A stretch of DNA of 50,115 nt from Phycisphaerales bacterium. GTDB lineage: Bacteria; Planctomycetota; Phycisphaerae; Sedimentisphaerales; Anaerobacaceae. The notes beneath the pieces are model-generated. The model made no database searches. It had not been told where the DNA came from and saw nothing but the letters and a program-made list of their open reading frames with translations. The DNA is taken from the NCBI GenBank assembly GCA_011057845.1, contig DSDB01000614.1, positions 1 through 50,115 of the forward strand, written 5' to 3'. Position numbers and translations under genes: made by a program. Shown here one piece after another: positions 17,358 through 43,927 of the stretch (positions within the stretch are counted from its first letter, which is position 1; each line of letters begins with the position of its first letter).

Positions 17358-17359
17358 CC

Positions 17360-18812: not shown

Positions 18813-19274
18813 ATGAAGAAGTTTGCGTGGCGACTGCAGCGGGTTCTGGATGTCAGAATCCGGCAGGAACAGGCCAAGAAGGCCGAATTACTGGCCGTTA
18901 CAGAGAAGTTGACACAGCGGCGCAGCGAACTGCTGACGCAGCGGCGGATTCTCGCCGAGCTAATAGAAGAACTCCATGCCGAAGACGCCGCGCGGCGATT
19001 GAGTCGGCAGGCGCTCTTCCTGCGGGCCTCGCAGACGAACAATGCGTTGATACGGCGTCTCGAGACCGAAATTGAGCAGTTGGCCGTCGAAAAACAACTG
19101 AAGATTGCGGAAGTCGTCAAACTCAGGCGATTCCGCGAGGGTCTCGAGAAATTGCGCGAAGAGGCCCGTATCGAGTTTGTCGGAGAACAAGAACGACTGG
19201 AACAAAAGGAAATGGATGAACGCACAACGATGCGTTTCGCGCGTGAGATTCTCGGCGGCCGGGCCTCCCCGTGA
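18813..19274 (+). CDS. fliJ: Flagellar export protein FliJ
   Basis: 153-aa coiled-coil protein directly after fliI. FAWRLQRVLDVR N-terminus is typical of FliJ. Confidence 0.75.
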   Translation: MKKFAWRLQRVLDVRIRQEQAKKAELLAVTEKLTQRRSELLTQRRILAELIEELHAEDAARRLSRQALFLRASQTNNALIRRLETEIEQLAVEKQLKIAEVVKLRRFREGLEKLREEARIEFVGEQERLEQKEMDERTTMRFAREILGGRASP

Positions 19275-19357
19275 CGGTCATACCCCGCGGCGGAGAATCG
19301 ACGCCGGACGCCTCCGGTGTCCGTTACGACGACGGGCTGGTCTATGGAGATAGAACC

Positions 19358-20044: not shown

Positions 20045-20046
20045 CC

Positions 20047-22401: not shown

Positions 22402-22417
22402 TGGCACGCCAATTGCA
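22402..22417 (+). promoter_or_regulatory. sigma54 promoter of the fliOPQR-flhB operon
   Basis: TGGCACGCCAATTGCA is a full match to TGGCACG-N4-TTGCA, 41 nt upstream of the fliO ATG. It is followed by the hairpin CAGCCCC-N10-GGGGCTG (22417-22440). Confidence 0.8.
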
Positions 22418-28779: not shown

Positions 28780-31700
28780 CTATAACAGAGGAACCGAGAC
28801 GGCTGCCAGGCGGGATTCACGGACACAAATACATCTCGCCCGGTACTTGTCGGCCAGTCTCTGGTAGAACTGTGGAAAACGGACCATCGGGCCGCGGGCA
28901 TATCGGCCGAAAACTTCCGCCAGGTACTCATGGAAGCAATGTGCACGGTCGTCGGGATCCTCGATGGCGGCCAGGTGGGGGCAGAGCCTCTCGGCGGGGT
29001 ATCGCTCAACCATGGCGCCCAACGCCTCCGCCATGATCCGGTTTCGCTGCTCGTACCTGTGGCTGTTGCCGCCAGGCAGACGGCGATAGAAGTACCGGCC
29101 TTGAAAATCACAGCGACAAAAACGGATATCCGGCGCATGGCGGCAGAGAAAGACGAAGTCCTCAACGGTATCGACTTCATCATAGAGCCCCGTTCGGTCG
29201 TAGAGGCTGCGGCGTTTGAGACTGCCCGGATTGGGTACGGGCCCGAAGCCGTGTTCAAGCAGAAAGGCCGGCAGGATGCGACTATCCGGAAAGTCCTCAT
29301 ATCGCCACAACTCGCCTGTCGGACAACCGGCCGAGTCAACAAGGGTCAGGGCCGCTGGGTAGACATAGTCGGCCTCCGGGTGCTGTTCAGCGAAGCGCAC
29401 AAGCCCGTCAATGTAGTCGGGAGATATAAAATCGTCGGCGTCCACGTTCAGGATGTACCGGCTGGCGGCCTCGCGGATGGCCCGGTTCAGACCCGATGCG
29501 AAGTTCTTATGCTCTTTGTGGATGCAGCGGATGCGTCGGTCGCCGTAGGCGGTCATGATGTCCGCCGTTCGATCCGTGGAGCCGTCGTTGACTATGAGCA
29601 GCTCGAGTTCCTCGAAGCTCTGCCCCAGGACTGATGCGATCGCCTGCGCTATGTAGGGCTCGGCATTGTAGGCCACCATACACACCGAGACCAAGGGCTC
29701 CCGGCGGCTCGATGCCGCAGACACAGGCGGTGCCGTGATGCTTGGCGACCCGCTCACGTCAGACCGATCCGCCGTCTTGCGGCGGGCCAGAAGCATGTGA
29801 AACGGTACGTCGATGTGGCCGACGATCCAGAGTATCGCCCGGTCATCGGACATCGCATGGACCGCATCGGGAAGATTCTCAATTAGCCCCCGCGCATACA
29901 ACCGGCGAACGAGGGCGAAATACTGCCGAACATCCTCGCGCCGAGCCAGGGCCTCGTTCACGGCGTCGGCGAACAGGGCCTCGGGATCGGCGTCGCTCGA
30001 CCGGGCGCGCGTTTCGGTGCGGCGTTTAAGTGCATTGAGGCGGGCCCTGACACGGGAGAGAATAGCGATATTGACCTTGTCCTTGGAGTGGGCGATGGAG
30101 GTCGGCAACTCGCGGTAGAGGTACAGAGGCTCGTCCACAAAAAACAGGCCGCCAATCTCCTCCATCTTGTAGACGATGTCCACATCCTCGGCGTATACAA
30201 TAGCCTCATCATAGCCGCCGGTTCGATGATAGTACGCGGTCTTGAACGTCTTGAAATGGCTGACGTGGTTTTCGTCGAGAGCCGATGCGCCCGGGCCGAT
30301 GGGTCCGCAGAAGCCCGTCTTGCGAGGCGTCAGATCGGCGCCACAGTAGATGAACTGCGAGTAGATGAGCCCGGCGTCGGGGCGTTCCAGATGGGCCTGG
30401 TGCATCGTCTCGATGGCTCGCGGCGTCAGGGCGTCATCGCTGTCAAGGATACCGAAGACATCGGCCGAGACAGCGGCGATGGCGGTCTTCAGCGCAGCCG
30501 TGTAGCCCTTGTTGACATCGTGATGGAGCACCCGGACGCGGGGATCGGACGCGATGCGGGCGATTTCGGCGAGTGAATCGTCGGTCGAGCCATCGTCGAC
30601 GATGATGAGTTCCCAGTCCGTGAACGTCTGCGACAGCACGGACCTGATCGCCTCGGCGATATAGGGGCCGTTGTTGTAGTTGGCCATGATAACGGAGAAT
30701 CGCGGCTTGGGGCGCGGGCCGCCCGCCGCCTCAACGAGGCGGATTTCCACGGGGTGATGGCACGCCTCGGGCGTGAAGCCTGCGTACCCTCCCACATCGA
30801 TCCGGCGGCCCGCGTCGAATTCGCCAGCCAAGGCCTCGGCGGTATAATCGGGATTGGCTTCACACCGGTTGGGACGCACCGACTGGACCACATTGACGGG
30901 ATTGCAGAATGCCACGGAAGTGGCTGGACACAGCAGCAGCGGCCGAGTCTCGGCAAACAGGCGGGCCTGGGCCGCGAAAGCCTCCTCAAGAGTATTCGGA
31001 TTGGCGAATTCAATGTGTTCCAACACCACCAACAGGTCGGCGGCCCGGTAGAGGGAACTGGACACCTCAAAGGGATAGGCGAAATCGTGCTCGGCCGTTG
31101 TCCAGTTGAACTCCAGTACACCGTCCCGCAGCGGCCGAAACTCCGGCAGCGTCTGTGGCACGCTTCGGGGGTAGCAATACCGCGTGTTACGGCCCAGGCG
31201 AAGCGAGAAACCCAGTGCGGCCGGCTGCGCGGACAGAGCGGCAATACAGCCGCCGGCGGAGAACTCCCGCACGAAGATGTTGTCGTCGACCAGCAATAGG
31301 ACGTGGTCGCAGGACCCCACGAGGCCGAGCAACTGCCCCCGGAAATCGGACTCGGCCAGGAATGCAACGGTCGGGAACTCCTCCGCCAGCTTCTCATATT
31401 GCCGCCGATGCCGTTCGGTGGAGACCTTGTAGAGAATGGTTGGATGGAGGAGATCCGCATCGGTGCAGTGCATCAACAACGATTCCAGCGTCGCCCGTAG
31501 TTGCATCGCGCGGTCCTTGCTGAAGATGATCGTTCGCAAGGGTACACGGCCCGTCCCAAGGATTCTTGACGCTCCCGGCCGGGTGTGTTTCTCCAGGAGA
31601 TGCCGTACCTGCGGGGCGTCGAGACCCTGGTCACGAGCCAGGATAAGCTGTTCGAGGGATGCATCGGTGCGACCGTCCTGGAGAAGGGCTAGGGCCCGCC

Positions 31701-34700
31701 AGTAGGCGCTGGTGGCGTCGCTTATGAATCCGGGACGACGGACGATATCGAACATGGCTGCCATATCCGGCCGCCAGAACAAGCGTCGCGGGTCAGGCAG
31801 GTCCGCCGAGACTTTGTGGCGCCATCGCGCCAGGAGCCGCCTGATGTCGTCGTCCGCCTGAGCCAGATTGGACTGCTTCTGAGCATCGAGGATGTTATGG
31901 TGGGTCACCAGGCCGCAGGGCAGTGGAATCAGGTGCAGACCGGCGTCGTACAGCCGGTAGCAGAAGTCCGTGTCGGCACAATAGAAGCGGTAGGACTCGT
32001 CCAGCCCGCCGATGTGGCGGAAGGCGTCCAGGCGGAATAGGCCGTAGTTCATAAGCAGGCGGGCGCCGTAAGTGAAGTCGATCCCAAACTCGGCCCAGAA
32101 GGGCTGCGCAGGATGAACATTGCGGTAAAAGAACATGCCACCGGCCACGCCGTCACTATGTGTGTCGAGGAGATGGACGGCTTCGGCCAGGGCCCCGGTG
32201 TTGAATGACATGTCATCACTGGCGTACATGGCGTATCGCCCCGTGGCCTTGCTGAAACCGAAGTTATACAGCGCCGGCCACGAATGATGCCCCTGACCCA
32301 GGTGTTCGGACTCGCGATAGACGCGGTTGATGCCGTGTCTACCGAGCACCTCGCGCGTGCCGTCGGTTGAATCCCCATCGATGATGATGAATTCGTACTT
32401 GAGACCATCCGCAGCCGCCTTGATGCTTCCTAGTGCGGCGTCGAGCAATCCGGCCCGGTTCTTCGTGGACAAGACGACACTGAGGTCCGGCCGGTCACCG
32501 GTGCTTGGCGTCGCCTCAACCGGTACGACGGCGTCCGATTCCAAGGAACGAACTGTGGTGACACCCAGGGGCCGGCGGCTGTGGTAGGCTACGCGGACCG
32601 ACTCGGACGCCAGGAACTCGAGTATGCACGGGACGATGGTCCACAGTGAGAGTTGACTACTGTCGTGCAGGTCGTTTTCCTTGAGGTAGCGACGGTGGTG
32701 TTCGGCGAATCGTCGGCCCAGGCGGGTCCAGGGGTTCGTCTTCTCATCACCATTGAAATGGAGGTCGATGCCGCCGCGCAACGACTGGAAGAACTCGCTC
32801 GCAAGGCGGCCCCAGTGGTCGCCCGACCACTCAAACGTGTGGCGAATGTGACGGGCGACAGGCGTGGTAAGGCGGCGGAGTTCCGCCCCGTTGAGCAAGG
32901 CCGCCACCGGCAGGTGGTAGTCCCACCAAGGCATGCCCAGGCAGAGGTTCGACGCCGGGATTCGCGCGATGAGCGATTTGTCAAAAAAGAAAAAGTCAAA
33001 GCCGCAGTTGTAAATGGTTCCATCTTCATCGCCGAGCGCATCGACATCGAGACGCGAACCGTAAAACAGCGATTGTGAGGCTTGGTGTTCAATGAAATCC
33101 AAAAGACCCCGGTCACCGGACAGGTGAATGTCGGCATTGACGATGCCGCAGAGGTCCCCGGCATTCACGGCCAGGACGCCGAGTACGTCGTCTAAGTAGA
33201 CAAGCGGTTTGCCGTAGAGATCGCGCGCGTCGCGCGGCGCCGCCATGAACTCCACTCGCGGGAATGCCGGCGCCAGGCGGTCCACTTCCTCCCGACAATT
33301 GACACTGATGACGCGAAACCCCAGGTCGAGCCAGCTTCGGACGGCGTTTTCCTGGGCGCCGATCCGTGACGGGGCAATGCTGGTCACAATGGTGACGGCC
33401 GGCCGGGCCGCAACTGAAACCGGCCGCGTCTCGGTCGCCCTCACAACGCCTGTCCGAGATCTGGGCGCCGCGGCACAAGCCGAATTCCTGAAACCGTCTA
33501 GTCGCATGGAATCGAGATGCAGCGGTTGCGGCGCCGCCAATTCCCGAGGGCAGTCATTGTGGTCGATCTCGTCCTGCAGGACCCGGCGAGCCTCCTCGGT
33601 GTAGTCCTGCCAGGCGCATTTGGTCTTCTGGCCCGGGTGATGGCGGAATCCGGCCAGCCAGGCGTCAAGAGTGTGAAGACGGGTATGTTTGAAGAAGCGC
33701 AGCCAGAGTTCGCAATCGCCAGCGAATCGCAGGTCCGTTCGGATGCGCCCGCCGGCCCGCTGCCATAGAGTACGAGTCCAGAAGGTGCTCTCTTGCTGGA
33801 TAAAGAACCGGGGACTGGTCTGTAGGTAGTCGACACGCGACCATAACGGGACCCAGCCGACGTTGATGAGCCGCCCGGCAGCATCCCACGCGGTGGGTCG
33901 GCCGGTAAGCCACTGGATGTCGGGATAGCGACTGAATACGTAAGCCACCTTCCAGAAGGCGTCGCGGTGGTACTTATCGTCGGAGTTCAACCAGGCCATG
34001 ATCGAGCCGGTGCTCTTGTCGAACCCCGCTTGGATGGCGGCGTATTGGCCGCCGTCCGGGGTGCTCTGCCAATAAGAAAGGTGCTTCTCGTATTTCCGGA
34101 TGATATCGACCGAACCATCCGTGCTGCCGCCGTCCATGATGATGTATTCGAGATTGGGATAGCCCTGGCTCAGTACCGAATCGATGCACTCTTCGAGAAA
34201 CGCCCCCTGGTTGAAGGACGGTGTTACGATGGATATCTTCGGCAGGCCCGCTGCGACGGGAGGGTGGGCGGTTCCCACCGGGACGGCACGGCGCCCCATG
34301 GCCCCCGCCTCGCGTTTCGTCGACAGAGCCAGCAGACGCGGCTTGGCCTTCTCGGCCTGGCGAAAGACATCGTTGTCCACGACCCGTGGAACAGCCCCGG
34401 GCACGAATAGCATCGGGCTGCCGGCTCGGCGGCGGCACTCGGCGATACAGCGGTGATACAGGTCCAGGTACTGGCCCGCGATGCGTTTGTGGTCGAATGT
34501 CGTTACCGCTCGGCGGCGGGCGGCGGCGGCGAGGCGTCCGCGAAGCCCGGCATCGCGCACCAAATCGATCAGAGACCGCGTGATGGCGGGAATATCGCCG
34601 GCGGGGGTGATGAGGCCCTCTTGTCCATCGCGAACCAGTTCGGGGACCCCACCCGTATCAAAAGCGGCAATCGGCAGACCGCAGGCCAGGGCCTCCAGAA

Positions 34701-35658
34701 CAACCAGCGGGCAGTTGTCGGCGTTCGGCGTATACAAGAAGATGTCGATAGCCGAGTAGGCAAAGGCCAGTGCGGTTTCGTCGGCGATGTGTGGGATATT
34801 GATGATACGAGGGTCTTGCGACGGTCTGTTGTCGCCGATATTGACAAAGACAAACTGACCGGCACCATTGAGCGCATTGAGAACCGCCTGGGTGTGGCGG
34901 CCGCCCTTCCACGGATTGGCCAGCGTGCCGCCGTGCGCGATGGCGCCCACGGCCAGATGATCCGGCGGAATACCGAAGCGATGGCGTGCCTCCTGCTTGT
35001 CGTGCGGACGGAAGACGTCCGTGTCCACGCCGTTGTAGATCAGATCCATGGGGTGGTCTCTGAGGACGGACTGCGCCACCTTATCATGGAGCCATCGCGA
35101 CGGCACGACGATGTGCAGAAAGCTGTGGTCATAGATGCGTTTCTTATCGGCTAGCAAATTGGATGCGTTGTCGACGAACAGAGCCGGGTCAACAGACAGA
35201 TTGGGGCAATCCCGGCAGTCCCGCCGCCAGCGATCGCAATCAAAGGCGTGCGCGCAGTGGCCGGTCAGCGCCTGCATGTCGTGCAGGGTCCAGACGACGG
35301 GCCGCCCATGCGACAACGGCGAGAGGCTGAAAGGATTGAAGTAACCTCCGTGAAGGTTGTGCAAGTGCAGGATGTCCGCAGCTCGGACGTGGGGGTTGAA
35401 GACCAGACGGTGGCTGCCCTGGAACTCGTAGTAGAGCTGCCCGGATTGCAGGCACACGGGGTGAAGGTGTCGGTTCTTCTCGATGGGAAAACTGAATGCA
35501 TTGGGATCGTTCGACAGTTTCTCCCCCACCAACATCGCGGCACGGCAGCCCACGGCACGCTGGGCGCAGGCTAGCCGTGAAGCCACCTTAGCGGCGCCAC
35601 CAGCCACGTCGTGCGTGTTGATATGCAGAATGGACAGGGCTGTGTCAGGCCGGTTCAT
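28780..35658 (-). CDS. Multi-module glycosyltransferase megaprotein (2,292 aa from ATG 35658): GT4-like + GT2 + unassigned + GT2 + unassigned GT-A-like + GT2 + GT2
   Basis: Track ORF 28780..35790. The first 44 codons are Arg/Pro-rich and overlap the upstream gene. ATG 35658 forms an ATGA overlap with the upstream stop. Module motifs (track aa numbering): 52-455 GT-B (PLVVLEALACGLPIAAFDTGGVPELV); 517-740 GT2 (ISIVTPSFNQ..YIIMDGGSTDGS..NSDD); 797-1000 (VTIVTSIAPSRIGAQENAVRSW..IVNADIHL); 1100-1300 GT2 (LSVVLSTKNR..FIIIDGDSTDGT..ASDD); 1417-1640 (TIIFSKDRAMQL..LLLVDDNIF); 1696-1900 GT2 (FSVIMANYNN..LIIVDDGSTDDS..LDSDD); 2031-2250 GT2 (VSVCMVAYNA..LLIVNDGSTDRT..VDADD). Confidence 0.85.
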   Translation of the reverse strand: MNRPDTALSILHINTHDVAGGAAKVASRLACAQRAVGCRAAMLVGEKLSNDPNAFSFPIEKNRHLHPVCLQSGQLYYEFQGSHRLVFNPHVRAADILHLHNLHGGYFNPFSLSPLSHGRPVVWTLHDMQALTGHCAHAFDCDRWRRDCRDCPNLSVDPALFVDNASNLLADKKRIYDHSFLHIVVPSRWLHDKVAQSVLRDHPMDLIYNGVDTDVFRPHDKQEARHRFGIPPDHLAVGAIAHGGTLANPWKGGRHTQAVLNALNGAGQFVFVNIGDNRPSQDPRIINIPHIADETALAFAYSAIDIFLYTPNADNCPLVVLEALACGLPIAAFDTGGVPELVRDGQEGLITPAGDIPAITRSLIDLVRDAGLRGRLAAAARRRAVTTFDHKRIAGQYLDLYHRCIAECRRRAGSPMLFVPGAVPRVVDNDVFRQAEKAKPRLLALSTKREAGAMGRRAVPVGTAHPPVAAGLPKISIVTPSFNQGAFLEECIDSVLSQGYPNLEYIIMDGGSTDGSVDIIRKYEKHLSYWQSTPDGGQYAAIQAGFDKSTGSIMAWLNSDDKYHRDAFWKVAYVFSRYPDIQWLTGRPTAWDAAGRLINVGWVPLWSRVDYLQTSPRFFIQQESTFWTRTLWQRAGGRIRTDLRFAGDCELWLRFFKHTRLHTLDAWLAGFRHHPGQKTKCAWQDYTEEARRVLQDEIDHNDCPRELAAPQPLHLDSMRLDGFRNSACAAAPRSRTGVVRATETRPVSVAARPAVTIVTSIAPSRIGAQENAVRSWLDLGFRVISVNCREEVDRLAPAFPRVEFMAAPRDARDLYGKPLVYLDDVLGVLAVNAGDLCGIVNADIHLSGDRGLLDFIEHQASQSLFYGSRLDVDALGDEDGTIYNCGFDFFFFDKSLIARIPASNLCLGMPWWDYHLPVAALLNGAELRRLTTPVARHIRHTFEWSGDHWGRLASEFFQSLRGGIDLHFNGDEKTNPWTRLGRRFAEHHRRYLKENDLHDSSQLSLWTIVPCILEFLASESVRVAYHSRRPLGVTTVRSLESDAVVPVEATPSTGDRPDLSVVLSTKNRAGLLDAALGSIKAAADGLKYEFIIIDGDSTDGTREVLGRHGINRVYRESEHLGQGHHSWPALYNFGFSKATGRYAMYASDDMSFNTGALAEAVHLLDTHSDGVAGGMFFYRNVHPAQPFWAEFGIDFTYGARLLMNYGLFRLDAFRHIGGLDESYRFYCADTDFCYRLYDAGLHLIPLPCGLVTHHNILDAQKQSNLAQADDDIRRLLARWRHKVSADLPDPRRLFWRPDMAAMFDIVRRPGFISDATSAYWRALALLQDGRTDASLEQLILARDQGLDAPQVRHLLEKHTRPGASRILGTGRVPLRTIIFSKDRAMQLRATLESLLMHCTDADLLHPTILYKVSTERHRRQYEKLAEEFPTVAFLAESDFRGQLLGLVGSCDHVLLLVDDNIFVREFSAGGCIAALSAQPAALGFSLRLGRNTRYCYPRSVPQTLPEFRPLRDGVLEFNWTTAEHDFAYPFEVSSSLYRAADLLVVLEHIEFANPNTLEEAFAAQARLFAETRPLLLCPATSVAFCNPVNVVQSVRPNRCEANPDYTAEALAGEFDAGRRIDVGGYAGFTPEACHHPVEIRLVEAAGGPRPKPRFSVIMANYNNGPYIAEAIRSVLSQTFTDWELIIVDDGSTDDSLAEIARIASDPRVRVLHHDVNKGYTAALKTAIAAVSADVFGILDSDDALTPRAIETMHQAHLERPDAGLIYSQFIYCGADLTPRKTGFCGPIGPGASALDENHVSHFKTFKTAYYHRTGGYDEAIVYAEDVDIVYKMEEIGGLFFVDEPLYLYRELPTSIAHSKDKVNIAILSRVRARLNALKRRTETRARSSDADPEALFADAVNEALARREDVRQYFALVRRLYARGLIENLPDAVHAMSDDRAILWIVGHIDVPFHMLLARRKTADRSDVSGSPSITAPPVSAASSRREPLVSVCMVAYNAEPYIAQAIASVLGQSFEELELLIVNDGSTDRTADIMTAYGDRRIRCIHKEHKNFASGLNRAIREAASRYILNVDADDFISPDYIDGLVRFAEQHPEADYVYPAALTLVDSAGCPTGELWRYEDFPDSRILPAFLLEHGFGPVPNPGSLKRRSLYDRTGLYDEVDTVEDFVFLCRHAPDIRFCRCDFQGRYFYRRLPGGNSHRYEQRNRIMAEALGAMVERYPAERLCPHLAAIEDPDDRAHCFHEYLAEVFGRYARGPMVRFPQFYQRLADKYRARCICVRESRLAAVSVPLL

Positions 35659-38600
35659 GTAAGACTCTCGACGACGTCCTCCAGTACGTTTTCGGCAGGT
35701 CTCTGGCAGGTCATTGCGGCGATGATGCGCCGGGGCCGCTGGGCAAGTGTGCGGCCTTCCAATTGTGACTTGTCGGGGTCGCGTAACCACCGGGCGAAGA
35801 CATCGCCCGTCCAGTTGCGGACGAGAAGACGGGAAACGGCATACAGGTCCACCGGAGGGCTGACATGGCCCTGCGTGTTGGCTAATGCGGCGGTGAAGCC
35901 TTCCGATGCGACCAGTTGGCGGGTCTCGTCGGTAAAGTCGCCGGCCGAACCGAAGGGATAGGACAGCAGGTTCACCGGTTGTCCAGTGAGGGCCTCCAAC
36001 TGCCTCTTGCAGCCGACTACCTCCGCGAACTGATCGCGGACCGACAGGATCCGCAGCCTTGTGTGTGTTTGAGTATGGGCGCCGATCTCAATCAGCGGCG
36101 AGTCGGCCAGGCAACGCAGTTGCGAAAGTGTCAGCGGCCGCTTCGACATCCGTCCGATCAACGGCACGGCGGCCCAGGCAAGGATCATATCAACGACCGG
36201 GTCGATCTGATCGGCGGGCCTGTCGCGCAGAATCGAGCAGATATCGTCATAACACTTCAGACGCTGTGCCGGATCGGCCAAGGACCAGAAAAGCCTCTGG
36301 GAGCCACAAGTCAGAGCCAACGACGGCGGCAGCACGGAGTTCACAAGCAGGGCCTGTTCGAGGGCGTCCCACCAGAATTCGCGGTCGCTGCCAACCATCC
36401 GTGAGGTCACAAAAACGGTGGCCGGGATATTGTGCGCCTTGAGAATCGGCAAGGCCTTCGTGAGGTTGTCGGCATAGCCATCGTCAAACGTGACGGCTAC
36501 GGTGTCCGGCATATACTGGCCGTGGCGGATCTCCTCTACAAGGGTCGGCAGCGGCACGACACGCAAATACGCCGCCAGTTCTGCCATGTGAGCATCGAAA
36601 TTCTCCGGGCTGACCGCCAGGAGCTGGGCGTCAACGGGGTCATCGGCGACGCGGTGGTACAGAAGGATCAGTGGGTGCTCGATGACAACCCTCGGACGCC
36701 CGCCCCCCGAACTCGGCGCAGGCGTGGCCGCCACGGAGTCCCTCGGCTCCCCAGACACCACAGCGGGTTTTGCGGCATGATTCCCGACAGGCACGGCGGC
36801 CTTGCTGGCTCGGGCGGCCAGCAGAACCTGATAGTCCGGATCATTGTGGGCAAGAACCTCGTTGGACAACTGTTCGGCAGGCACGCCATCAAGAAAGGCC
36901 TTGGCCGCCGCCACGTTGCCGTACGCCTGAACACTCACACTGCCTTCAGGAAAGACCTCCTCCACGAGCATGCGCAGGCTCTTGTCCGTGAAGCGCCAGT
37001 ATTCGCCCCAGCGGTCCATATCATAGCGTGATATCTGGCTGATGCCGGAGGCCGTCAGCAGCAATGTCCCGCCGGGTTTGAGGGCCTCGGCGGCGGTCCG
37101 CAGGGCCGCCTTGACATCGTAGATCATCTGAAGGGTCTGCGTCAGGACGATGCAGTCGTAGGCATCCCGCGGGATGTTCCGTCCGGTCGCCAGGTCGCCC
37201 ACGAGCGTGGCCGTCTCCGAAGCCGCAGCACTCAGGACGTCCACACGAGTGGTCCGGGAGCCGTACTTGCGACTGTATTGGTCGTCGCCGACTTCCAGTA
37301 CAACGCCTCGGATGGCGGAGGCATTCTCCGCAAGAAACCGTTCGATGTAGACGCGGTCGATGGGCGTTCCGCGGTCGTAGCCGAATGTCCGGCTGACGGG
37401 CTCGCATCCGGCGTTGTACGTGGCCTCCACGCACCGGGTCGAAGGCCGACCATCCTCCATGGTCCCAGGTTCGTCCCCGGCCCGCTCCGGCGAGAGAATC
37501 CTCTTGGCGTAGATCAGCAGAAAGAAACGCGTCTGAGCGGTCATCTTGAACGGTGGCTTGGTGGCGGGGTTGGTCAGACTGTCAAAGTCATGGATCATGT
37601 AGCGAAACCCCGCGGCCGCCAAGACCGCCAGTATCCTGTGAAGGCTCTGACCCGTTTCGGGAAAGCCGTGATACTCGATGACCAGCTCTTTCACCAGGTG
37701 CAACCGGTCGGCGATCTCCGTGATGACCTCGCTCTCGGCCCCTTCGATGTTGAGTTTCAGAAAGTTGATTTCGCCCTCGATATACCGGCTCAGCGGGACG
37801 ACCCGCACCTTCGTATCGCCGGCCCCGCCGTAGAGGCTACCGCCGTCCGAGTGGTCGGCCGTAAAATCGAGCGTCGCGTCGGATTTGTGCAGACCCGCAT
37901 CCACCACGGTGGCCATGATATTGTTGGCTCGGAGGTTCTTGTGCAGTAACTCGAGCGACTTGCCGTCCGGCTCGAAGATGGTGATTCGGGCGTCGGGGTA
38001 TCGCTGCGCGACGTACAGGCTGAACAGGCCGATGTGTCCGCCCCCATCGATAATGACCGGTCGCGGATTGTCCGTCTCGAAGTCATAGATGCGCTGCAGG
38101 AAGATGTCCTTGGCCGCCATGTAGAACGACAGCAGGTCGTAGCAGTAGATCGTCAGGCCATTGAACTTGACGCAGTAGTCGCCGAACCGCTCCCGCCCCG
38201 CGAGGTTCCGTAATCGCTCGAAGTCCTGCCGTGTGCTCTCCGCGCGAATCTCGATCACGTGATGCGGCGCGACCGATTCCCGCAACGGCGGCGAGGCCGC
38301 CTTGTCGGCGGTTGCGGTGTATTCCTGAACCATCTGCGCCAATTCGGCCATCCGGTGTCGGTAGGTATGCTCTCGCAGTGTCCGCTCCTGGCCGGCGGCG
38401 GCGATATGGGCCCGTTCGGATTCGCTATCCAGGAAGTGCCGCAGCAACTCAGCGCAATGTTCCGCGGATTCGTAGGCCACAACCTCCCGGCCGGGGGCAA
38501 ACAGTTCATGGAGATTGTCCTTGCGGTCGGTCAGCAACAAGGCCCCCATGCCCGTGGCCTCGTAGAGCCGCATGTTGTTGGCGTGCGAACCGGCAATGTC

Positions 38601-39413
38601 AATGTGGCGGTTCAGGACGACTCGGGCACGGCTGTAGAGTCTGTACATCTCCAGCCCGAAGAGCGGACCCTTGAAAAACTCGCGGGCCCGATCCGAAAGA
38701 CCATCGTATCCGAAGCCATGCAGATTCATGGCAAAGCCGCGGTCGGCGAGGGCGTTGAATAGCTCGGTTCCGCCCTTGTGGCCGCCCGTGAACTGGCCTA
38801 CGAAGGCAACGTCAACCGGCCGGTCCGATGGGATGTCCACGCGGTCCAGGAGGGTCGACTCGAAGCCCAGACGAAAGTACTCGGCGGGCTTGCCCAGACG
38901 GCGGAAACCGTCAACATAACCCGGTATGGAGGACAACAGTAGATCATAGGCCGACAGGTCCCGCATGGCCATCGTCAAGGGCGCGGCATGTTGGCCCACC
39001 ATCAGACGGACAAAGGGTTTGACGGGATTCAGGACGTCGCTGGTGACTTGCTCCATCGCCAGGTTGATGATGATATCCGGCTTGAACAGGCGGACTCTGG
39101 CTTGAAGTATGGCGGCCAGATGCTCCGCCGTCATGGTGGCGATCTGCCGCGGGTCGGCTTGCGTCCGGGCGATCAGGCCGTTCTCGCGGGCCCAGGCGTA
39201 TTGCATGAATGGGGCGTTGTAGATGATGTCGGCGGCTTCGTGGCCTAGGGCCCTCAGGTTCCTCGAGTAGAAGTCCGCCACGCCGAAACAGGTGGCCATA
39301 CGGGCCTCATACTGCTGCTCGAAGGGCCGCATCTCGAGACCGGGGTTTTCGGCGTACAGGCGGGCGAGAAACGGCTCATAATCCGTGTTGACAATCAAGA
39401 ATCGCAGCGACAT
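35655..39413 (-). CDS. Four-domain fusion enzyme (1,252 aa from ATG ~39413): CgeB-like glycosyltransferase + FkbM-family methyltransferase + class I SAM methyltransferase + CE4 polysaccharide deacetylase
   Basis: Track ORF 35655..39716. The first 101 codons are Arg/Pro-rich and non-coding-looking. The Met at codon 102 has GGAG 8 nt upstream. Motifs: VAFVGQFTGGH...RLYEATGMGALLLTD (Glyco_trans_1_2/CgeB type); VIIDGGGHIGLFSLY..FEPDG..NFLKLNIEGAE (FkbM); VVLEVGDD...YDCIVLTQTLQMIYD...LKPGGTLLLT (class I MTase); AVTFDDGYADN...IGAHTQTHTRL...LSYPFGS (NodB/CE4). Confidence 0.85.
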   Translation of the reverse strand: MSLRFLIVNTDYEPFLARLYAENPGLEMRPFEQQYEARMATCFGVADFYSRNLRALGHEAADIIYNAPFMQYAWARENGLIARTQADPRQIATMTAEHLAAILQARVRLFKPDIIINLAMEQVTSDVLNPVKPFVRLMVGQHAAPLTMAMRDLSAYDLLLSSIPGYVDGFRRLGKPAEYFRLGFESTLLDRVDIPSDRPVDVAFVGQFTGGHKGGTELFNALADRGFAMNLHGFGYDGLSDRAREFFKGPLFGLEMYRLYSRARVVLNRHIDIAGSHANNMRLYEATGMGALLLTDRKDNLHELFAPGREVVAYESAEHCAELLRHFLDSESERAHIAAAGQERTLREHTYRHRMAELAQMVQEYTATADKAASPPLRESVAPHHVIEIRAESTRQDFERLRNLAGRERFGDYCVKFNGLTIYCYDLLSFYMAAKDIFLQRIYDFETDNPRPVIIDGGGHIGLFSLYVAQRYPDARITIFEPDGKSLELLHKNLRANNIMATVVDAGLHKSDATLDFTADHSDGGSLYGGAGDTKVRVVPLSRYIEGEINFLKLNIEGAESEVITEIADRLHLVKELVIEYHGFPETGQSLHRILAVLAAAGFRYMIHDFDSLTNPATKPPFKMTAQTRFFLLIYAKRILSPERAGDEPGTMEDGRPSTRCVEATYNAGCEPVSRTFGYDRGTPIDRVYIERFLAENASAIRGVVLEVGDDQYSRKYGSRTTRVDVLSAAASETATLVGDLATGRNIPRDAYDCIVLTQTLQMIYDVKAALRTAAEALKPGGTLLLTASGISQISRYDMDRWGEYWRFTDKSLRMLVEEVFPEGSVSVQAYGNVAAAKAFLDGVPAEQLSNEVLAHNDPDYQVLLAARASKAAVPVGNHAAKPAVVSGEPRDSVAATPAPSSGGGRPRVVIEHPLILLYHRVADDPVDAQLLAVSPENFDAHMAELAAYLRVVPLPTLVEEIRHGQYMPDTVAVTFDDGYADNLTKALPILKAHNIPATVFVTSRMVGSDREFWWDALEQALLVNSVLPPSLALTCGSQRLFWSLADPAQRLKCYDDICSILRDRPADQIDPVVDMILAWAAVPLIGRMSKRPLTLSQLRCLADSPLIEIGAHTQTHTRLRILSVRDQFAEVVGCKRQLEALTGQPVNLLSYPFGSAGDFTDETRQLVASEGFTAALANTQGHVSPPVDLYAVSRLLVRNWTGDVFARWLRDPDKSQLEGRTLAQRPRRIIAAMTCQRPAENVLEDVVESLT

Positions 39414-39759
39414 ATCAGGTCTCCGTGAGGAACGGGTTATCGGGTTGGACGGGTATGGGGCCGGATCGGCAACCGCGGCGCAGTCGGCCTCGACAACATG
39501 CTTGAGAGTATCGATCGGTGCGCCGTGAACATTGCCGCATCGACGCAACGGGAGATGGCCCCCGCGGTGTTCCTGAAGAAACAGACCCGTGAAACCAGCG
39601 GATATGGCGGGGCAGATTCCATCATCAGAACCGGGTGGAGACCGACGCCGGCTCGGCGGCGAAATATTCCCGCGCGGACTCCGTCCCCGTCGGTGGCCTC
39701 GACTGTCCAAAGTCAACCCACGAGGTCGACCCCGACGCGCACAAACCGCCCTCGCCGTT

Positions 39760-40083
39760 TCATGCGCGGCTCTTGTAAGCCCGCAGCGTCTTTCTGACTA
39801 TTCGTGCTTCTTCCAGCCTGCCGGCCGCCTGCGAAAGCTCGCAATGCACCGCCAGCGTCAATTCACCGTACAACCGCCCCAGCCGCTCGCCTCGTCGCCG
39901 GAACAACTCGCCGTCCGTAACCCCCCATTGAACGAACCGCCGGATGATCTCGCCGCTGTCCCGACACAGGGCCTCCAGTCGGGCCGTCTCGCCCCCTCGG
40001 GCCAGACGTATCTGCTCGCCCAGACAGGCCTCCAACCGATCCAGGTCCTGCTCGATCCGATTGTCGTCAAGGTACGAGTCCAT
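39760..40083 (-). CDS. Small all-helical hypothetical protein (107 aa), possible chaperone/adaptor
   Basis: The ATG abuts the stop of the upstream TPR gene (40084/40083). Heptad-like Leu/Arg/Glu-rich sequence with no enzymatic motif. Confidence 0.5.
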   Translation of the reverse strand: MDSYLDDNRIEQDLDRLEACLGEQIRLARGGETARLEALCRDSGEIIRRFVQWGVTDGELFRRRGERLGRLYGELTLAVHCELSQAAGRLEEARIVRKTLRAYKSRA

Positions 40084-40710
40084 CTATGTCGTCGCCGCCC
40101 GACCGTTTAAACTGCGCTCCACCTCCTCCAACAGGTTCGCCGCATCCTGGTTCTCAGGGTCTACGGCGGCAATATCACCCAACATCTTCCTGGCCTCGCT
40201 CAACCGCGAGTCCCTGGCGTACAACGTCGCCAGACAGAACATCACGGACGTGTCGCCCGGGTGCATCCCAAGGTAGGATTCCAGGTGCCGGATTACCTCG
40301 GCGAACGACCCCATCATGCACGAAACCTGGAACAGCCCCAGCAGCGCCGTCAGATTGTCCGCGTCCCGCTCCAGGGACTTCAGATAGAGATCGAACGCCC
40401 GCGGCCCATCGTTGCGTTGCTGAGCGATCATGGCAAGCCCCGCGTAGGCCTTCGCACAGCCGCCGTCCAGACGGCAGGCGACACGGAAGGACAACTCCGC
40501 ATTCTCCAAGTCGTTCTCCTGCAGCGCCACGACTCCCAGCCCTACATAGGGTCCGGGCTCATCCGGCCCGACCGTCGCGGCCTGCTCATAACACCTCTTC
40601 GCATCCGGGTATCGTCCGACCGTCGCATAGCAGTCGCCAAGTTCACACAGCAGCTCGCATCGCTGGGTCGTATTCTCGAATTCCGCCGTGTTGTTCGTCG
40701 TCACATCCAT
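40084..40710 (-). CDS. TPR-only protein (208 aa from ATG 40710)
   Basis: Track ORF 40084..40830. ATG 40710 overlaps the upstream gene's end by 10 nt (TCTCTATGGATGTGA). About five TPR units (YPDAKRCYEQAATVGPDEPGPYVGLG..., AKAYAGLAMIAQQRNDGPRAFDLYLKSLERDADN...). Confidence 0.75.
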   Translation of the reverse strand: MDVTTNNTAEFENTTQRCELLCELGDCYATVGRYPDAKRCYEQAATVGPDEPGPYVGLGVVALQENDLENAELSFRVACRLDGGCAKAYAGLAMIAQQRNDGPRAFDLYLKSLERDADNLTALLGLFQVSCMMGSFAEVIRHLESYLGMHPGDTSVMFCLATLYARDSRLSEARKMLGDIAAVDPENQDAANLLEEVERSLNGRAATT

Positions 40711-42299
40711 AGAGACTCTCTTCCATTGACCAGGTCCACGGCCCTTTCGAGCAGTGCGATTGCTGATGCGGGGTCCTTGGCGCGTCTGCGCAGTCGTCCT
40801 TCGAGAAGCAGTGTCTCGACCGTTGGACACGGGTCATTGACCTGCCGGCACAGCTCCCCAGCCCGTTGATAGTTGCCGCTGCGATAGTGAGCATCCGCCG
40901 CCAGTGACCGGACATACCATTCGTTGCCGTACCGCTCGGCAAGGTACTCGAACAGGCCGGCCGCCCGGGCCCACTGGCCCGCCGCGGCGTGTGCCCTGGC
41001 CTGTTCGAGCAACTGGTCGTACTGAAAAGGTATCTCGTCCGGCTCCACGCGACGGACCACCACACCGACACCCGGCAGGGCCTGCCGTAGCGGCGTATCG
41101 GGATGGTGTCGCCGGGCCTGCGCAATGGCTTCTCTCGTCCCGACCACCGCCCATTGCGCCGCATTGGAATCCTCCAGCTCGAACGCTGTGTCGGGATGGG
41201 CCAATAAGGGGGAGATCGAGTCCTCGACCCAGAAGTTGCGAATGGGAAACCCCTGCGGCACTACCGCCACAAGGTCTCCGTCGCAAGCCTCCAACGCGGC
41301 ATCGATCCTCCGGCAGGCCGCTGTCTGGGGGTCCACCGCAACCGGCACAACATTGGGTATCGTACGACCGCCGATAGCAACCGTACCGCAGCCATGATCA
41401 GCCCCGAGCGCCTCCACATCCTGCGCCGGCAGCGGCAGATAAACACAATAAGGGTAGAACGTGTGGCGACGGACTGCTTCAAGCATCCTTGCGAGACTGT
41501 CGTTAAGCCGCTCCGCCACGATGATGATCGACAGGTCCTTGACGGCGCTCCAAGGCTTGGCCGGCCGCGTCGTGCGAACTGTCAGAAAGGTCTCGACAAA
41601 CGCCTCCCGGTCCTGTCGGCCCTGATGTGATAGTCGCTCCGAGCCCCCGACCGGGCTGTAGAATTCCCCTGTAATCCTCCGGATATGGTAGAAATCCGTG
41701 AAGAAGACGGCCTTGCGCGTAAGGTCCCAGTCGATCAGGAGCTTCAGCTCCTCATTGAAAGGCCCCGTCTGATCCAACAGCTCCCTGTCGTGCATCAGGC
41801 TGACGTGTAACGTGTGATTGAAGCACAGCATCAGAAAACGATCGAAGTCCCGGCTGATCTCAAGGACCTTGCTCAAGACCGTTCTCATCCCATCGGGCTC
41901 AACCCGGCAGTACACCCGATACAGGTCCGTATAGGCCAGCCGGCAATCCGTCCGGCTCTCAAGTGCATCGACCAGGGTCTCGACGTGGTACGGATACAGC
42001 AGGTCATCGTCGTCAAGATAGGCAATGTACTTGCCCTCGGCATGCGCCAGCGCCTCATTGAGCGACGCCGCCTTGCCCAGATTCTCATCCCGGTTGATGA
42101 ACAAAACCCGCTGGTCCCGTAGACGCTCCACAATGTCGTCCACACGCTCGCCTCCGTCGCGGACCAGGATGATCTGTACGTTCCGATAGCTCTGCCGCAA
42201 CGCGCTCGACAGCGCCACCGGTAGAGACCCCCTGCGATTGTGCGTTGGAATCACAATCGTAACCTGTGGACCACGTTTTTCGGCGCCGTTGCAGACCAT
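40701..42299 (-). CDS. GT2 glycosyltransferase with C-terminal TPR region
   Basis: 532 aa. VTIVIPTHNRRGSLPVALSSALRQSYRNVQIILVRDGG...YLDDDD (GT-A/GT2). C-terminal TPR-like helices (ARAAGLFEYLAERYGNEWYVRSLAADAHYRSGNYQRA). Confidence 0.8.
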   Translation of the reverse strand: MVCNGAEKRGPQVTIVIPTHNRRGSLPVALSSALRQSYRNVQIILVRDGGERVDDIVERLRDQRVLFINRDENLGKAASLNEALAHAEGKYIAYLDDDDLLYPYHVETLVDALESRTDCRLAYTDLYRVYCRVEPDGMRTVLSKVLEISRDFDRFLMLCFNHTLHVSLMHDRELLDQTGPFNEELKLLIDWDLTRKAVFFTDFYHIRRITGEFYSPVGGSERLSHQGRQDREAFVETFLTVRTTRPAKPWSAVKDLSIIIVAERLNDSLARMLEAVRRHTFYPYCVYLPLPAQDVEALGADHGCGTVAIGGRTIPNVVPVAVDPQTAACRRIDAALEACDGDLVAVVPQGFPIRNFWVEDSISPLLAHPDTAFELEDSNAAQWAVVGTREAIAQARRHHPDTPLRQALPGVGVVVRRVEPDEIPFQYDQLLEQARAHAAAGQWARAAGLFEYLAERYGNEWYVRSLAADAHYRSGNYQRAGELCRQVNDPCPTVETLLLEGRLRRRAKDPASAIALLERAVDLVNGRESLWM

Positions 42300-42327: not shown

Positions 42328-43815
42328 TCACCACTGCGTCGCAAAAGCCGGGTCTGTCTGTTGCGACAAGGTCGTCCCGGACATCCGCAACGGCGTATCG
42401 ACGATACTCGGCTTTCTCTCGGCGTCGATCTCCATCTCGAACCGCGTAAACAGGTCGTTCACCACCGTCAGTTGGGCCTTGAGCGAGGCGTTCTCCTCAA
42501 CATAACGGCGATACCGCGCGGGCTCGTAAGGTCCGTGCACGATCATCTCGCAGAACTGCTCGCTGATGTTGAAGAGAAACTCTCGCGGCAACACACTTTC
42601 AGCCCCCAGGAAGTTATGGACGACCGGCTTGAGACCACAGGCCATCGCCTCGAGGACCGCCACCGGGTGACCCTCGCAGATGCTTGTACAGAGGATATAG
42701 TGCTTGTCCGCCAGCCAGGCCGCGACATCGTGCTGGTAGCCCTCGAAGACCACCACGCCCTCCAAATCCAGTGCCCGCACCATCTGCCGCAAGTACCGTT
42801 CAAGAGCTGCGTCCTGAATAGTCCCGGCAACGAACAGCCTGTATTCGGGGTCGATGTAGTGCAGCTTCTGCATGCACTGCAATGCAAGAGCTGGATTCTT
42901 GACCATCCGCAGATTGGCAATCATGGCCAGATTCTTGCCCTTGTCGCGCGCCGTAAAACGGAACTTATCCAGATTCACGCCGTTGGGAACTGTCTGGACG
43001 GATGTTCTGGCCTGTATATCCGGCACGGCCGCGGTCAGGGCCTCCAGCGTGGCACTATTGCCGACGGCAATGAGCGTATCCACGTTGGACCAGTCGACCT
43101 GCCTGGGCCATGGCGCGTAAGCCTCGTAGCGGTGGAGCCTTACGATGTTCCGCGAGACCTTGGGCATCTGCGATGCCCTGGCCGCGAGGTTCGTGCACCA
43201 CTCGAACCAGCAGATATCCGCCCACTGCATGGTCTGCCGCAGTTCTTCCTCGGTTCGGCCGTCAAAAACCCGAGTCTGAAACCGTTTACGCGTGAATTCC
43301 ACAATCTCGTTGAGGAAGCTTGACCCATCGGCGCCACAGAAGAACGCTATCCTGGGCCTCTTGTTGAGGATCAGGTCCACCATCGGCTGAATCACGCGCT
43401 GCTCCGGGCTGAGCTTCAACGAGCACAATAGTGCCTCGACGGCCGCGGCCTTGTCGTTTTGGTCCAGCAGCACCGCCGCAGCTCGGTTGAGCACGTCGGC
43501 GCTGAGAATCTCCAGCCGCTGCATATCGCCGAACAAGGCCATAGCCTCCCGAGCGCGTCCGGCCGCAATGTATGTCTCAGAGAGATTCCACAGTATCTCG
43601 CCGCTGTCCGGCCGCAGTAAACGAGCCCGCCGCAGGTGGTCGATGGCCTCATCCGACCGCCCCAGACAGTGCAGAATCGCCCCGGCGTCGTTGAGGGCTT
43701 CCGCGTCATCGGGCGAATGCGCAAGGTGTCTTCGGATGTGTTCGAGTGCCGCCGAGTGCCGCCCCGATTGGGCCAACTCGAGCCCTGTCCGGTAGTCGTC
43801 TGTGTGGCCGTCCAT
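42328..43815 (-). CDS. TPR + GT4-like glycosyltransferase (495 aa from ATG 43815)
   Basis: Track ORF 42328..43923. ATG 43815 has GAAGAGG upstream and lies downstream of the sigma54 box. N-terminal TPRs (AEALNDAGAILHCLGRSDEAIDHLRRARLLRPDSGEILWNLSETY). C-terminal GT-B motif TSICEGHPVAVLEAMACGLKPVVHNF. Confidence 0.8.
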   Translation of the reverse strand: MDGHTDDYRTGLELAQSGRHSAALEHIRRHLAHSPDDAEALNDAGAILHCLGRSDEAIDHLRRARLLRPDSGEILWNLSETYIAAGRAREAMALFGDMQRLEILSADVLNRAAAVLLDQNDKAAAVEALLCSLKLSPEQRVIQPMVDLILNKRPRIAFFCGADGSSFLNEIVEFTRKRFQTRVFDGRTEEELRQTMQWADICWFEWCTNLAARASQMPKVSRNIVRLHRYEAYAPWPRQVDWSNVDTLIAVGNSATLEALTAAVPDIQARTSVQTVPNGVNLDKFRFTARDKGKNLAMIANLRMVKNPALALQCMQKLHYIDPEYRLFVAGTIQDAALERYLRQMVRALDLEGVVVFEGYQHDVAAWLADKHYILCTSICEGHPVAVLEAMACGLKPVVHNFLGAESVLPREFLFNISEQFCEMIVHGPYEPARYRRYVEENASLKAQLTVVNDLFTRFEMEIDAERKPSIVDTPLRMSGTTLSQQTDPAFATQW

Positions 43816-43911
43816 GTGTACCTCTTCGAGTATTGTGGTTTTTAGCGTCTTGGCCCCGCCAGGCAGGGCAAGGCTGCGAAGCGACCGCAGAGGACCGCCC
43901 TGCGAACAACG

Positions 43912-43927
43912 TGCAAAACCCATGCCG
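43912..43927 (-). promoter_or_regulatory. sigma54-type promoter candidate for the glycosylation operon
   Basis: Minus strand reads CGGCATGGGTTTTGCA. GG and GC sit at exact -24/-12 spacing, with 2 mismatches to TGGCACG-N4-TTGCA. About 95 nt upstream of ATG 43815. Confidence 0.55.

Follow-up and report, generated by a model that had tools for sequence, protein, structure and literature searches.

The locus and its four-domain gene

The stretch of DNA analyzed here, referred to as the window, comprises positions 1 to 50,115 of contig DSDB01000614.1 (assembly GCA_011057845.1) of a Phycisphaerales bacterium, and carries at 35655..39413 (minus strand) a gene encoding a single polypeptide of 1,252 aa. 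Four enzyme domains follow one another in this protein: a GT-B glycosyltransferase (GT), an FkbM-family methyltransferase, a domain with the fold of class I S-adenosylmethionine (SAM)-dependent methyltransferases and a CE4 deacetylase. This composition was put forward in the original prediction, made from the sequence alone, and the corresponding profiles (PF13524, PF05050, PF08241/PF13489 and PF01522, besides TIGR profiles) recover all four domains, each above its Pfam curated cut-off. The motifs pointed out at that time are found at the expected places, namely VIIDGGGHIGLF at residues 453-464, NFLKLNIEGAE at 550-560, VVLEVGDD at 704-711, LKPGGTLLLT at 778-787, TFDDGY at 975-980 and HTQTH at 1113-1117, and the catalytic and cofactor motifs of the four domains appear intact. 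No transmembrane or signal segment was detected in the 1,252-aa protein (maximum KD19 of 1.37), which is most probably soluble and cytoplasmic.

The stop-to-stop open reading frame (ORF) spans 35655..39716 (minus), and its first in-frame ATG, at 39413, is also the start selected by the gene callers, with the same 1,252-aa product in three independent assemblies. A GGAG Shine-Dalgarno sequence (39421..39424, minus) lies 8-11 nt 5' of this ATG and is kept inside the coding linker of relatives that possess a fifth domain; the arrangement GGAG-N7-ATG at the domain boundary is preserved in loci L008 and L004, and four homologous proteins (P0004, P0005, P0006 and P0011) begin at exactly the Met encoded by ATG 39413. 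A TTG start at 39716, which would yield 1,353 aa, was rejected because the extension consists of frame-shifted debris of a GT2 domain followed by former linker.

At the other end, the TGA stop (35655-35657) overlaps the ATG of the next gene, forming an ATGA at 35655..35658 (minus; ...CTTACATGAACC...). This overlap, already noted in the original prediction, recurs in relatives: L008, L043 and L090 have an ATGA between their CE4 and GT4 sequences, and L089 has a TTGA there. The second gene (28780..35658, minus; Pfam and gene calls) encodes a multi-glycosyltransferase of 2,292 aa, formed by a GT4 first module (aa 1-430; 34369..35658, minus) and then several GT2 modules. That the two proteins are made in fixed stoichiometry, as was also proposed, goes beyond what a 4-nt overlap shows.

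When the gene was compared with a relative of 90% identity, the ratio of nonsynonymous to synonymous substitution rates (dN/dS) was 0.12 for the GT, 0.20 for the FkbM, 0.16 for the class I methyltransferase and 0.17 for the CE4 domain, against 0.78 for the linker between the two methyltransferases; the four domains are under purifying selection. Synonymous divergence (dS) between window positions 35658-39413 and L008 positions 11081-14770 is uneven, with 0.11 in the GT-B domain and 0.25-0.36 in the FkbM, class I methyltransferase and CE4 domains, which could mean that the two lineages have recombined or have a mosaic history.

Structure and conservation of the domains

The first domain (aa 1-372; 38298..39413, minus) matches PF13524 (Glyco_trans_1_2) over aa 218-359 with 117.9 bits against a cut-off of 25 (E = 4.5e-34), and an AlphaFold model of the N-terminal 372 residues (pLDDT 91.7, pTM 0.88) displays the two Rossmann domains of a GT-B fold. 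The PDB structures nearest to the model are retaining GT4 enzymes, namely ManT (7qsg), MshA (3c48), BshA (3mbo) and PimA, and the stretch NNMRLYEATG (aa 279-288) is conserved in the domain, with a cluster formed by N280, R282, E285 and G288. The earlier description as a CgeB/Glyco_trans_1_2-type transferase is therefore borne out by the profile match and the fold, the likeness to CgeB consisting of a common Pfam domain; P0052, a distant match with the JGI label CgeB, shares 34% identity over 9% of the query.

The FkbM domain (aa ~400-640; 37494..38216, minus) scores above the cut-offs of both PF05050 (43.5 bits against 22.7, E = 4.9e-11, aa 456-605) and TIGR01444 (65.4 bits against 37.7, E = 7.1e-18). 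The predicted FkbM methyltransferase is further supported by its motifs: DGGGHIG, FEP and K.N.EG.E are invariant, the first and the last of these being SAM-binding motifs, as are the residues D456-G462 and K553-E560, and the domain has a conserved N-terminal extension (C..DLLSFYMAAKDIF..IYDF). The third domain (aa ~669-875; 36789..37409, minus) was assigned to the class I methyltransferases by Pfam, modeling and Foldseek, with matches at aa 735-809 to PF13489 (36.5 bits, cut-off 27) and PF08241 (26.9 bits, cut-off 21.2). It bears the signature EPVSR.FG.DRG.PIDR.YIE, and about 40 of its residues are invariant across homologues. In a model of the C-terminal 858 residues (pLDDT 78.8) two Rossmann methyltransferase domains and the CE4 barrel are separated by disordered linkers, and a Foldseek search with this model returned tandem-methyltransferase matches; for the class I domain, neither single-sequence nor profile searches against the PDB singled out any solved structure as its relative. 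The linker that leads to the CE4 domain (36678-36788, aa ~876-912) is rich in Pro, Ala, Ser and Gly and about 20 residues shorter in the 90% relative, a change of length that fits an unconstrained tether.

The fourth domain (aa ~913-1215; 35769..36677, minus) matches PF01522 in two stretches, with 79.4 bits against a cut-off of 23.1 (E = 2.8e-22), and NCBIfam gave partial matches of PgaB/IcaB type, including TIGR03938 (PgaB). Single-sequence matches in the PDB were weak; a profile search placed 6dq3 first (4.9e-18), with alignments to 6dq3, 6go1, 4hd5 and 4wcj. The modeled CE4 block, with pLDDT values mostly of 85-97, superimposes on PplD, IcaB and the N-terminal domain of PgaB with Foldseek TM-scores (target) of 0.83, 0.81 and 0.73, respectively. 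In NodB2-type enzymes the motif MT5 (VLMYH-like) comes first, followed by MT1 (TFDD), MT2 (HTx2H) and MT3 ((A)YP(Y)G) (PMC10967932), and the same order is found here: LLYH920, TFD977D978GY, H1113TQTH1117 and SYPFG (1151-1155). The domain thus shares motif order and fold with PgaB, IcaB and PplD. Across 23-26 homologues its catalytic and metal residues do not vary, and they align with those of PplD and related deacetylases, so that the NodB/CE4 deacetylase with intact motifs that had been proposed stands, its type being NodB2.

The spacing of 135 aa between D978 and H1113, described beforehand as an unusually long spacer, is exact, but the stretch contains a conserved folded insert and is not a mere spacer. 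This insert of ~85 aa (aa ~1005-1100; 36114..36401, minus), located between MT1 and MT2, has four invariant residues (W1014, D1016, P1029 and L1099), is modeled as a beta-hairpin with helices (pLDDT 85-96 by 10-residue block, mostly ~90) and is shared by CE4 genes that stand alone (300-328 aa).

A conserved cassette behind the fusion

In a large protein collection all four domains occur together in ~20 clusters at the 90% level, with 41-90% identity to the query, which come from metagenome-assembled genomes (MAGs) of Nitrospirota, Planctomycetota/Phycisphaerae and Deltaproteobacteria; further clusters contain the FkbM, class I methyltransferase and CE4 domains without the GT. An exhaustive search of the 50% representatives yielded 3,476 matches at E <= 1e-30. 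The whole FkbM-methyltransferase-CE4 core is fused in ~25 of these representatives, and proteins of ~820 aa with the methyltransferase-CE4 pair at residues ~295-815 make up more than 100 of the top 150; by Pfam, sampled members of this group have the pair, and of three that were scanned one gave an N-terminal GT2 match. When species-representative genomes were scanned, at least 569 loci were obtained, mostly non-flagellar, with the methyltransferase and/or the CE4 part, and in most of them the two are adjacent separate genes, in either order. No close relative was found among the GTDB species representatives. FlhB of the window has its best named relatives, with about 57-60% identity, in MAGs of Phycisphaerales, Planctomycetota and Sedimentisphaerales, so that the DNA probably stems from an uncultured planctomycete.

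The GT, FkbM, methyltransferase and CE4 sequences are separate consecutive genes, many of them joined by ATGA overlaps, in MAGs of WOR-3 (L012), Geobacter sp. (L043), Bacteroidetes (L059) and Opitutia (L072), and Trichlorobacter lovleyi possesses a split form in which a PF13524 gene (823 aa) and a gene for FkbM-methyltransferase-CE4 (817 aa) share 4 nt. In ~20 loci (tblastn) the CE4 sequence is directly followed by that of a full-length GT4, whose homology to the multi-glycosyltransferase covers residues 5-430 of the latter. Since both this adjacency and the overlap are conserved, the ATGA in the window is expected to couple the deacetylase to its cognate GT4 module. Judged from these gene arrangements, the four-domain protein is a Rosetta-stone fusion of an existing GT/FkbM/methyltransferase/CE4(/GT4) cassette and no chance assembly. 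The original prediction was thus right in that the fusion is real, but what it regarded as the union of four normally separate activities corresponds to a conserved cassette of adjacent genes elsewhere.

The FkbM-methyltransferase-CE4 core is also found joined to sulfotransferase, radical-SAM/SPASM or pyruvyl-transferase modules, as in the metagenomic proteins P0173, P0174, P0178 and P0184 (1,600-1,900 aa), or to TPR modules. Such modular glycan-tailoring giants appear to form an unstudied family.

Flagellar setting of the fused form

The four-domain gene is located within a flagellar cluster, between flgL and fliD. On the minus strand the order is flgI, a small ORF, flgN, flgK, a flgL-like gene, a TPR and GT4 gene, a GT2 and TPR gene, a TPR gene, the four-domain gene, the multi-glycosyltransferase gene and fliD, and the plus strand carries fliF, fliG, motA, motB, fliO, fliP and flhB. 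The flgL-like hook-associated gene (44061..45245, minus; Pfam) marks the upstream edge of the island. It is followed by a protein with N-terminal TPR and GT4 domains (42328..43923, minus; Pfam), whose likeness to FlmG lies in the domain order, by a GT2 protein with C-terminal TPR (40701..42299, minus; Pfam) and by a TPR-only gene, called as 208 aa (40084..40710, minus; Pfam and gene calls). The last was considered as a detached N-terminal TPR region of fused relatives, some of which have N-terminal TPR repeats, and this was dismissed, the similarity being that of TPR in general. At the downstream edge, directly 3' of the multi-glycosyltransferase gene, lies fliD (26279..28648, minus; Pfam), in a synteny kept in L004 and L090. 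The 789-aa FliD is unusually long, with an extra central region between FliD_N and FliD_C that gives a weak Cerato-platanin-like match, and a long FliD also follows the multi-glycosyltransferase in L004 (758 aa) and L090 (789 aa).

Flagellar structural genes stand beside the fused form in five of the eight loci inspected, the window included. Downstream of the fused gene, L004 has a multi-glycosyltransferase gene, fliD and flhB; fliD, flhA, flhB, fliR, fliQ and fliP are near it in L090, fliA, flhG, flhF and flhA in L089, and two flagellin genes with flbT in L007. The order in the window is flgK-flgL-[island]-fliD-flhB. Glycosylation genes set among flagellar structural or export genes, in a synteny that is kept, are a mark of flagellin glycosylation islands, and this pattern is seen in the window as well as in L004, L007, L089 and L090. 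L006 contains genes for Maf and NeuB, of the kind typical of pathways that resemble flagellin sialylation. A tblastn search of all fetched loci with the flagellar proteins of the window found only L004 and missed the Pfam-annotated flagellins of L007; as it was too insensitive, precomputed Pfam gene tables were used for the flagellar context instead. It is thus the fused form that goes with flagella, while the cassette as such is a module for glycans in general. The possibility, raised beforehand, that the architecture is common and belongs to non-flagellar loci holds for the unfused cassette and for the methyltransferase-CE4 pair, which are common and lie mostly in loci of polysaccharide or lipopolysaccharide (LPS) type, but not for the fused form.

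Among the larger ORFs of the window that were scanned, no nucleotide-sugar synthesis, flippase, polymerase or ABC-export families were found, and no Wzx/Wzy or initiating phosphoglycosyltransferase domains turned up.

Further to the left the window encodes a short flagellin of 271 aa (8282-9097), FliS (7744-8103), a TPR and GT41 (OGT-like) protein (5841-7664, minus), a GT4 protein (9490-10506), FliK and a sigma-54 activator (2824-4287). The TPR-GT41 gene adjoins fliS and the flagellin gene, with the GT4 gene on the other side, and the group looks like a second, separate flagellin-glycosylation module. Two perfect sigma-54 -24/-12 sites (TGGCAC-N5-TTGC) were found on the plus strand, at 13037-13051, 5' of the fliF region, and at 22402-22416, directly before fliO; the number of sites with one mismatch is not above chance, and the pattern search gave no site near the four-domain gene. 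Between fliG and motA, two ORFs on the minus strand (17161-18282, 373 aa, and 18218-20059, 613 aa) have no Pfam match.

Deletion history of the window allele

Two relatives, P0002 (90% identity, 1,589 aa) and P0003 (57%, 1,587 aa), have a GT2 domain in addition at the N-terminus. All that survives of this domain in the window is a stub corresponding to its first ~31-33 codons, at 39534..39625 (minus; tblastn match 39628-39530). The stub is in another frame than the 1,252-aa ORF, whose own frame resumes at residue 317 of P0002 (tblastn). By blastn, window positions 39621-39534 align with L008 10008-10095 at 83% and window positions 39538-36788 with L008 10956-13706 at 91.7%. These matches delimit an out-of-frame deletion of ~860 bp with its junction at ~39534-39538, where there is ACGC(G/T)GC microhomology. 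From the ancestral ATG at 39625 a remnant ORF of 62 codons (39437..39625, minus) runs out of frame past the junction and ends in a TAA 23 nt before ATG 39413. The allele is identical over 7.7 kb in three assemblies from different samples, and an assembly artefact was accordingly dismissed as the cause. Read from these alignments, the window gene descends from a five-domain gene by truncation. Since the internal Shine-Dalgarno sequence and ATG are conserved and serve as the start in other relatives, the deletion brought the gene back to the four-domain form that is common.

Upstream of the gene, L008 and L004 have an operon for a methyltransferase, an epimerase, a split transketolase, a B12-radical SAM enzyme, a DegT aminotransferase, an RmlC-like sugar isomerase, a GHMP kinase and an NTP-transferase. 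A sugar-nucleotide operon with the components from the split transketolase to the NTP-transferase is conserved in L008 (1173-10004), L004 (693-9950) and L005 (1-8853), and its content points to an amino sugar of an unusual kind, branched or C-methylated, that is activated through a sugar-1-phosphate. No homologues of the ten upstream genes of L008 were found in the window, save for a probable remnant of the 3' end of the NTP-transferase, the last gene of the lost operon (~100 nt; 39626..39720, minus). This assignment is suggestive only, as it follows from a DNA alignment to L008 9900-10004 and a weak tblastn match (E = 1.9) at the corresponding position. The gap between the four-domain gene and the TPR-only gene (39414-40083, 670 nt) is thus not empty, holding the GT2 stub, the 62-codon remnant ORF and this probable remnant; two small ORFs called there, of 107 aa (minus) and 168 aa (plus), are probably spurious. 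L005 has the GT2 as a small gene of its own, with a similar sugar operon on one side and the four-domain gene on the other, and the loss of the GT2 together with the operon in the window suggests that this GT2 transferred the sugar made by the operon.

Proposed function and alternatives

Based on the domain content and the genomic setting, we hypothesize, with a probability of about 60%, that the protein is a soluble cytoplasmic multi-enzyme, the fused form of the cassette, that extends and tailors an O-glycan of the flagellum, most probably on flagellin. The TPR glycosyltransferases encoded upstream, which are the likely initiators because of the FlmG domain order, would recognize the flagellar protein and initiate its glycan. 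The GT4 module at the head of the multi-glycosyltransferase may then add an N-acetyl-hexosamine from which the CE4 domain would strip the N-acetyl group, and one or both methyltransferase domains would place methyl groups on the freed amine, on hydroxyls or on both, in the manner of NodB and NodS with Nod factors. The GT-B domain would add a further sugar and the GT2 modules lengthen the chain, the ATGA overlap coupling translation of the CE4-bearing protein to that of its GT4-led partner. The protein is presumed to restart at the conserved internal Shine-Dalgarno sequence and ATG after the loss of the GT2 domain and the operon, and given these two losses the strain probably makes a simpler glycan. 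The precedent of NodB and NodS makes N-methylation of the freed amine attractive, O-methylation being equally possible. We infer the substrates, the reaction order, the choice between N- and O-methylation and the protein target from these arrangements.

Several observations weigh against this proposal. Parts of the cassette occur in non-flagellated taxa, including Bacteroidota, and the scan also found them in Gordonia and cyanobacteria; the split cassette of the Geobacter sp. MAG (L043) is flanked by GT9 heptosyltransferases and other glycosyltransferases in an LPS-core-like arrangement; and three of the eight fused loci (L005, L006 and L008) have no flagellar structural gene in the available sequence. 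Characterized NodB2-type CE4 enzymes work outside the cytoplasm: PgaB, IcaB and PplD act there on poly-N-acetylglucosamine (PNAG) or on a cell-wall linkage unit, and the CE4 domain studied here differs from them in lacking a signal or transmembrane segment, in being fused to cytoplasmic transferases and in its ~85-aa insert. Motif I of the class I methyltransferase reads LEVGDDQYS (family consensus LEIGDNxYT), without the canonical GxGxG loop, and the Pfam models cover this domain from motif II onward only, that is, its C-terminal half. A promoter and terminator scan of 39300-40300 was negative, with no promoter in the 670-nt gap. Finally, no study of this protein family was found in the literature on FkbM, deacetylases and flagellin glycosylation, on trifunctional glycosyltransferases or on flagellin glycosylation in Planctomycetes.

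As the cassette also resides in an LPS-core-like locus and in non-flagellated taxa, it is the genomic context only that points to flagellin as the target. The island could instead build an LPS-core or other surface polysaccharide, or a glycan of FliD or of a hook protein, and merely reside in a flagellar cluster. Such a role, which the unfused cassettes in GT9-flanked and general polysaccharide loci would favor and with which the failure to identify a lipid-carrier or protein-acceptor determinant in the fusion itself is compatible, is nevertheless unlikely: the fused forms repeatedly adjoin fliD, flagellin and export-gate genes in several lineages, the neighbors include TPR-GT proteins with the domain order of FlmG, some fused relatives have N-terminal TPR repeats, and none of the larger window ORFs scanned showed a domain of a flippase, of Wzx/Wzy, of an ABC exporter or of an initiating phosphoglycosyltransferase.

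The methyltransferase domains could also have a role other than tailoring. Methyl capping is an established means of termination in ABC-transporter-dependent O-antigen and S-layer glycan synthesis, and the original prediction had suggested that one of the two domains might act as WbdD or WsaE do, capping the non-reducing end and thereby setting glycan length. The physical tie between two methyltransferase domains and a very large, multi-module, polymerase-like glycosyltransferase resembles the association seen in WbdD and WsaE. We nonetheless regard a chain terminator as rather improbable, given that none of its hallmarks was found: no kinase domain was matched in the protein by Pfam or NCBIfam (no coiled-coil search was made), no ABC-transporter or carbohydrate-binding export component was seen in the larger window ORFs scanned, and the tightest evolutionary link of the class I methyltransferase is to a deacetylase, with which it is paired in either order in at least 569 loci. 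This linkage suggests modification of a deacetylated sugar and not end-capping.

A comparable doubt concerns the class I domain itself. Its motif I departs from hh(D/E)hGxGxG and, together with the Pfam alignment starting at motif II, would agree with a non-catalytic, substrate-binding or scaffolding module, in which case the protein would hold three activities and not four. For the same reasons SAM binding by this domain is deduced from fold and conservation. Against a scaffolding role, which we likewise hold to be improbable, the variant motif is itself invariant across homologues along with the ~40 other residues, the predicted structure is a complete Rossmann methyltransferase fold, the domain exceeds the curated cut-offs for PF13489 and PF08241, and stand-alone genes for it are kept next to CE4 genes in hundreds of genomes. 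The class I assignment of the original prediction consequently stands as regards profile and fold, the glycine-rich loop being its atypical part.

A decaying locus, in which the out-of-frame deletion inactivated the gene, left the 1,252-aa ORF untranslated and set the island on its way to loss, is very unlikely, for although the original N-terminal domain and the sugar operon are gone, the surviving 88-bp stub is more diverged than the remainder (83% vs 91.7%) and no promoter is predicted in the gap, the 3.7-kb ORF and the next one of 6.9 kb are both unbroken, dN/dS is as low as 0.12-0.20, the restart Met with its GGAG serves four-domain relatives as their natural start, the end of the remnant ORF 23 nt upstream would permit re-initiation, and the same allele is present in three samples.

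Comparison with known systems and significance

The closest named proteins carry the NCBI product name 'trifunctional glycosyltransferase/class I SAM-dependent methyltransferase/polysaccharide deacetylase' (e.g. WP_013334356.1 of Gloeothece verrucosa; ~820-1,160 aa). These abundant proteins possess the same methyltransferase-CE4 didomain (25-40% identity), also fused to a glycosyltransferase, but theirs is of the GT-A type (GT2), they have no FkbM domain, and the examples inspected lie outside flagellar loci; the window protein departs from their GT2-methyltransferase-CE4 order in that a GT-B and an extra FkbM domain replace the N-terminal GT2. No experimental study of the trifunctional proteins was found in the literature.

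In rhizobial Nod-factor synthesis, NodB, a cytoplasmic CE4 de-N-acetylase, and NodS, a SAM methyltransferase that acts on the freed amine, work as a pair, which is to our knowledge the only well-known precedent for a functional couple of a CE4 enzyme and a methyltransferase. The two systems differ in that NodB has the NodB1 motif order, in contrast to the NodB2 order found here, and in that the Nod acceptor is a free chitooligosaccharide; accordingly, NodB and NodS profiles gave no meaningful match to the protein (NodB TIGR04243, 18.8 bits against a cut-off of 240). WbdD, with its kinase domain and coiled-coil ruler, and WsaE, in which a methyltransferase is joined to rhamnosyltransferase modules within an ABC-transporter pathway, differ in the partner of the methyltransferase, here a deacetylase, and in the other respects discussed above.

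FkbM-type and other methyltransferases are known from the flagellin glycosylation islands of Geobacillus (PMC5109656), and FlmG of Caulobacter is a flagellin glycosyltransferase with TPR and GT domains, the N-terminal domain of which binds flagellin (PMC7591256). The window shares with these systems the location of the genes between flagellar genes, the FkbM domain and TPR-glycosyltransferases with the FlmG order. Their tailoring genes stand alone, in contrast to the fusion described here with its coupling to a 2,292-aa multi-glycosyltransferase, and the window copy has no nonulosonic-acid pathway. No report of a CE4 deacetylase in a flagellin glycosylation island was found in the literature.

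What is new is the recognition of the GT/FkbM/methyltransferase/CE4/GT4 cassette and of the fact that several phyla have it fused, repeatedly, in flagellar loci, the occurrence of a CE4 deacetylase in a flagellar glycosylation island and a natural pair of four- and five-domain alleles. Since all the domains belong to known families and GT-methyltransferase-CE4 fusions have already been named, the gain is a testable pathway hypothesis and no new principle. Flagellin glycosylation is largely unexplored beyond a few pathogens and model species, and the Rosetta-stone fusion ties together four families, or five with the GT4, that co-occur separately in hundreds of polysaccharide and LPS loci, and so predicts one shared glycan motif. 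More tentatively, and as a possibility to which we give limited credence, the FkbM-methyltransferase-CE4(-GT4) set may represent a widespread cytoplasmic pathway that installs a de-N-acetylated, methylated and possibly N-methylated hexosamine, and that was repeatedly fused in Planctomycetota, Nitrospirota and Desulfobacterota and recruited to flagella, the window being a reduced-glycan variant in which the GT2 and its operon were lost together. The window allele, with four domains and no sugar operon, and its 90% relative, with five domains and the operon, form a natural pair with which genes could be linked to glycan structure, and if the window indeed encodes a reduced-glycan variant, this pair would offer a ready comparison for assigning the donor sugar of the GT2.

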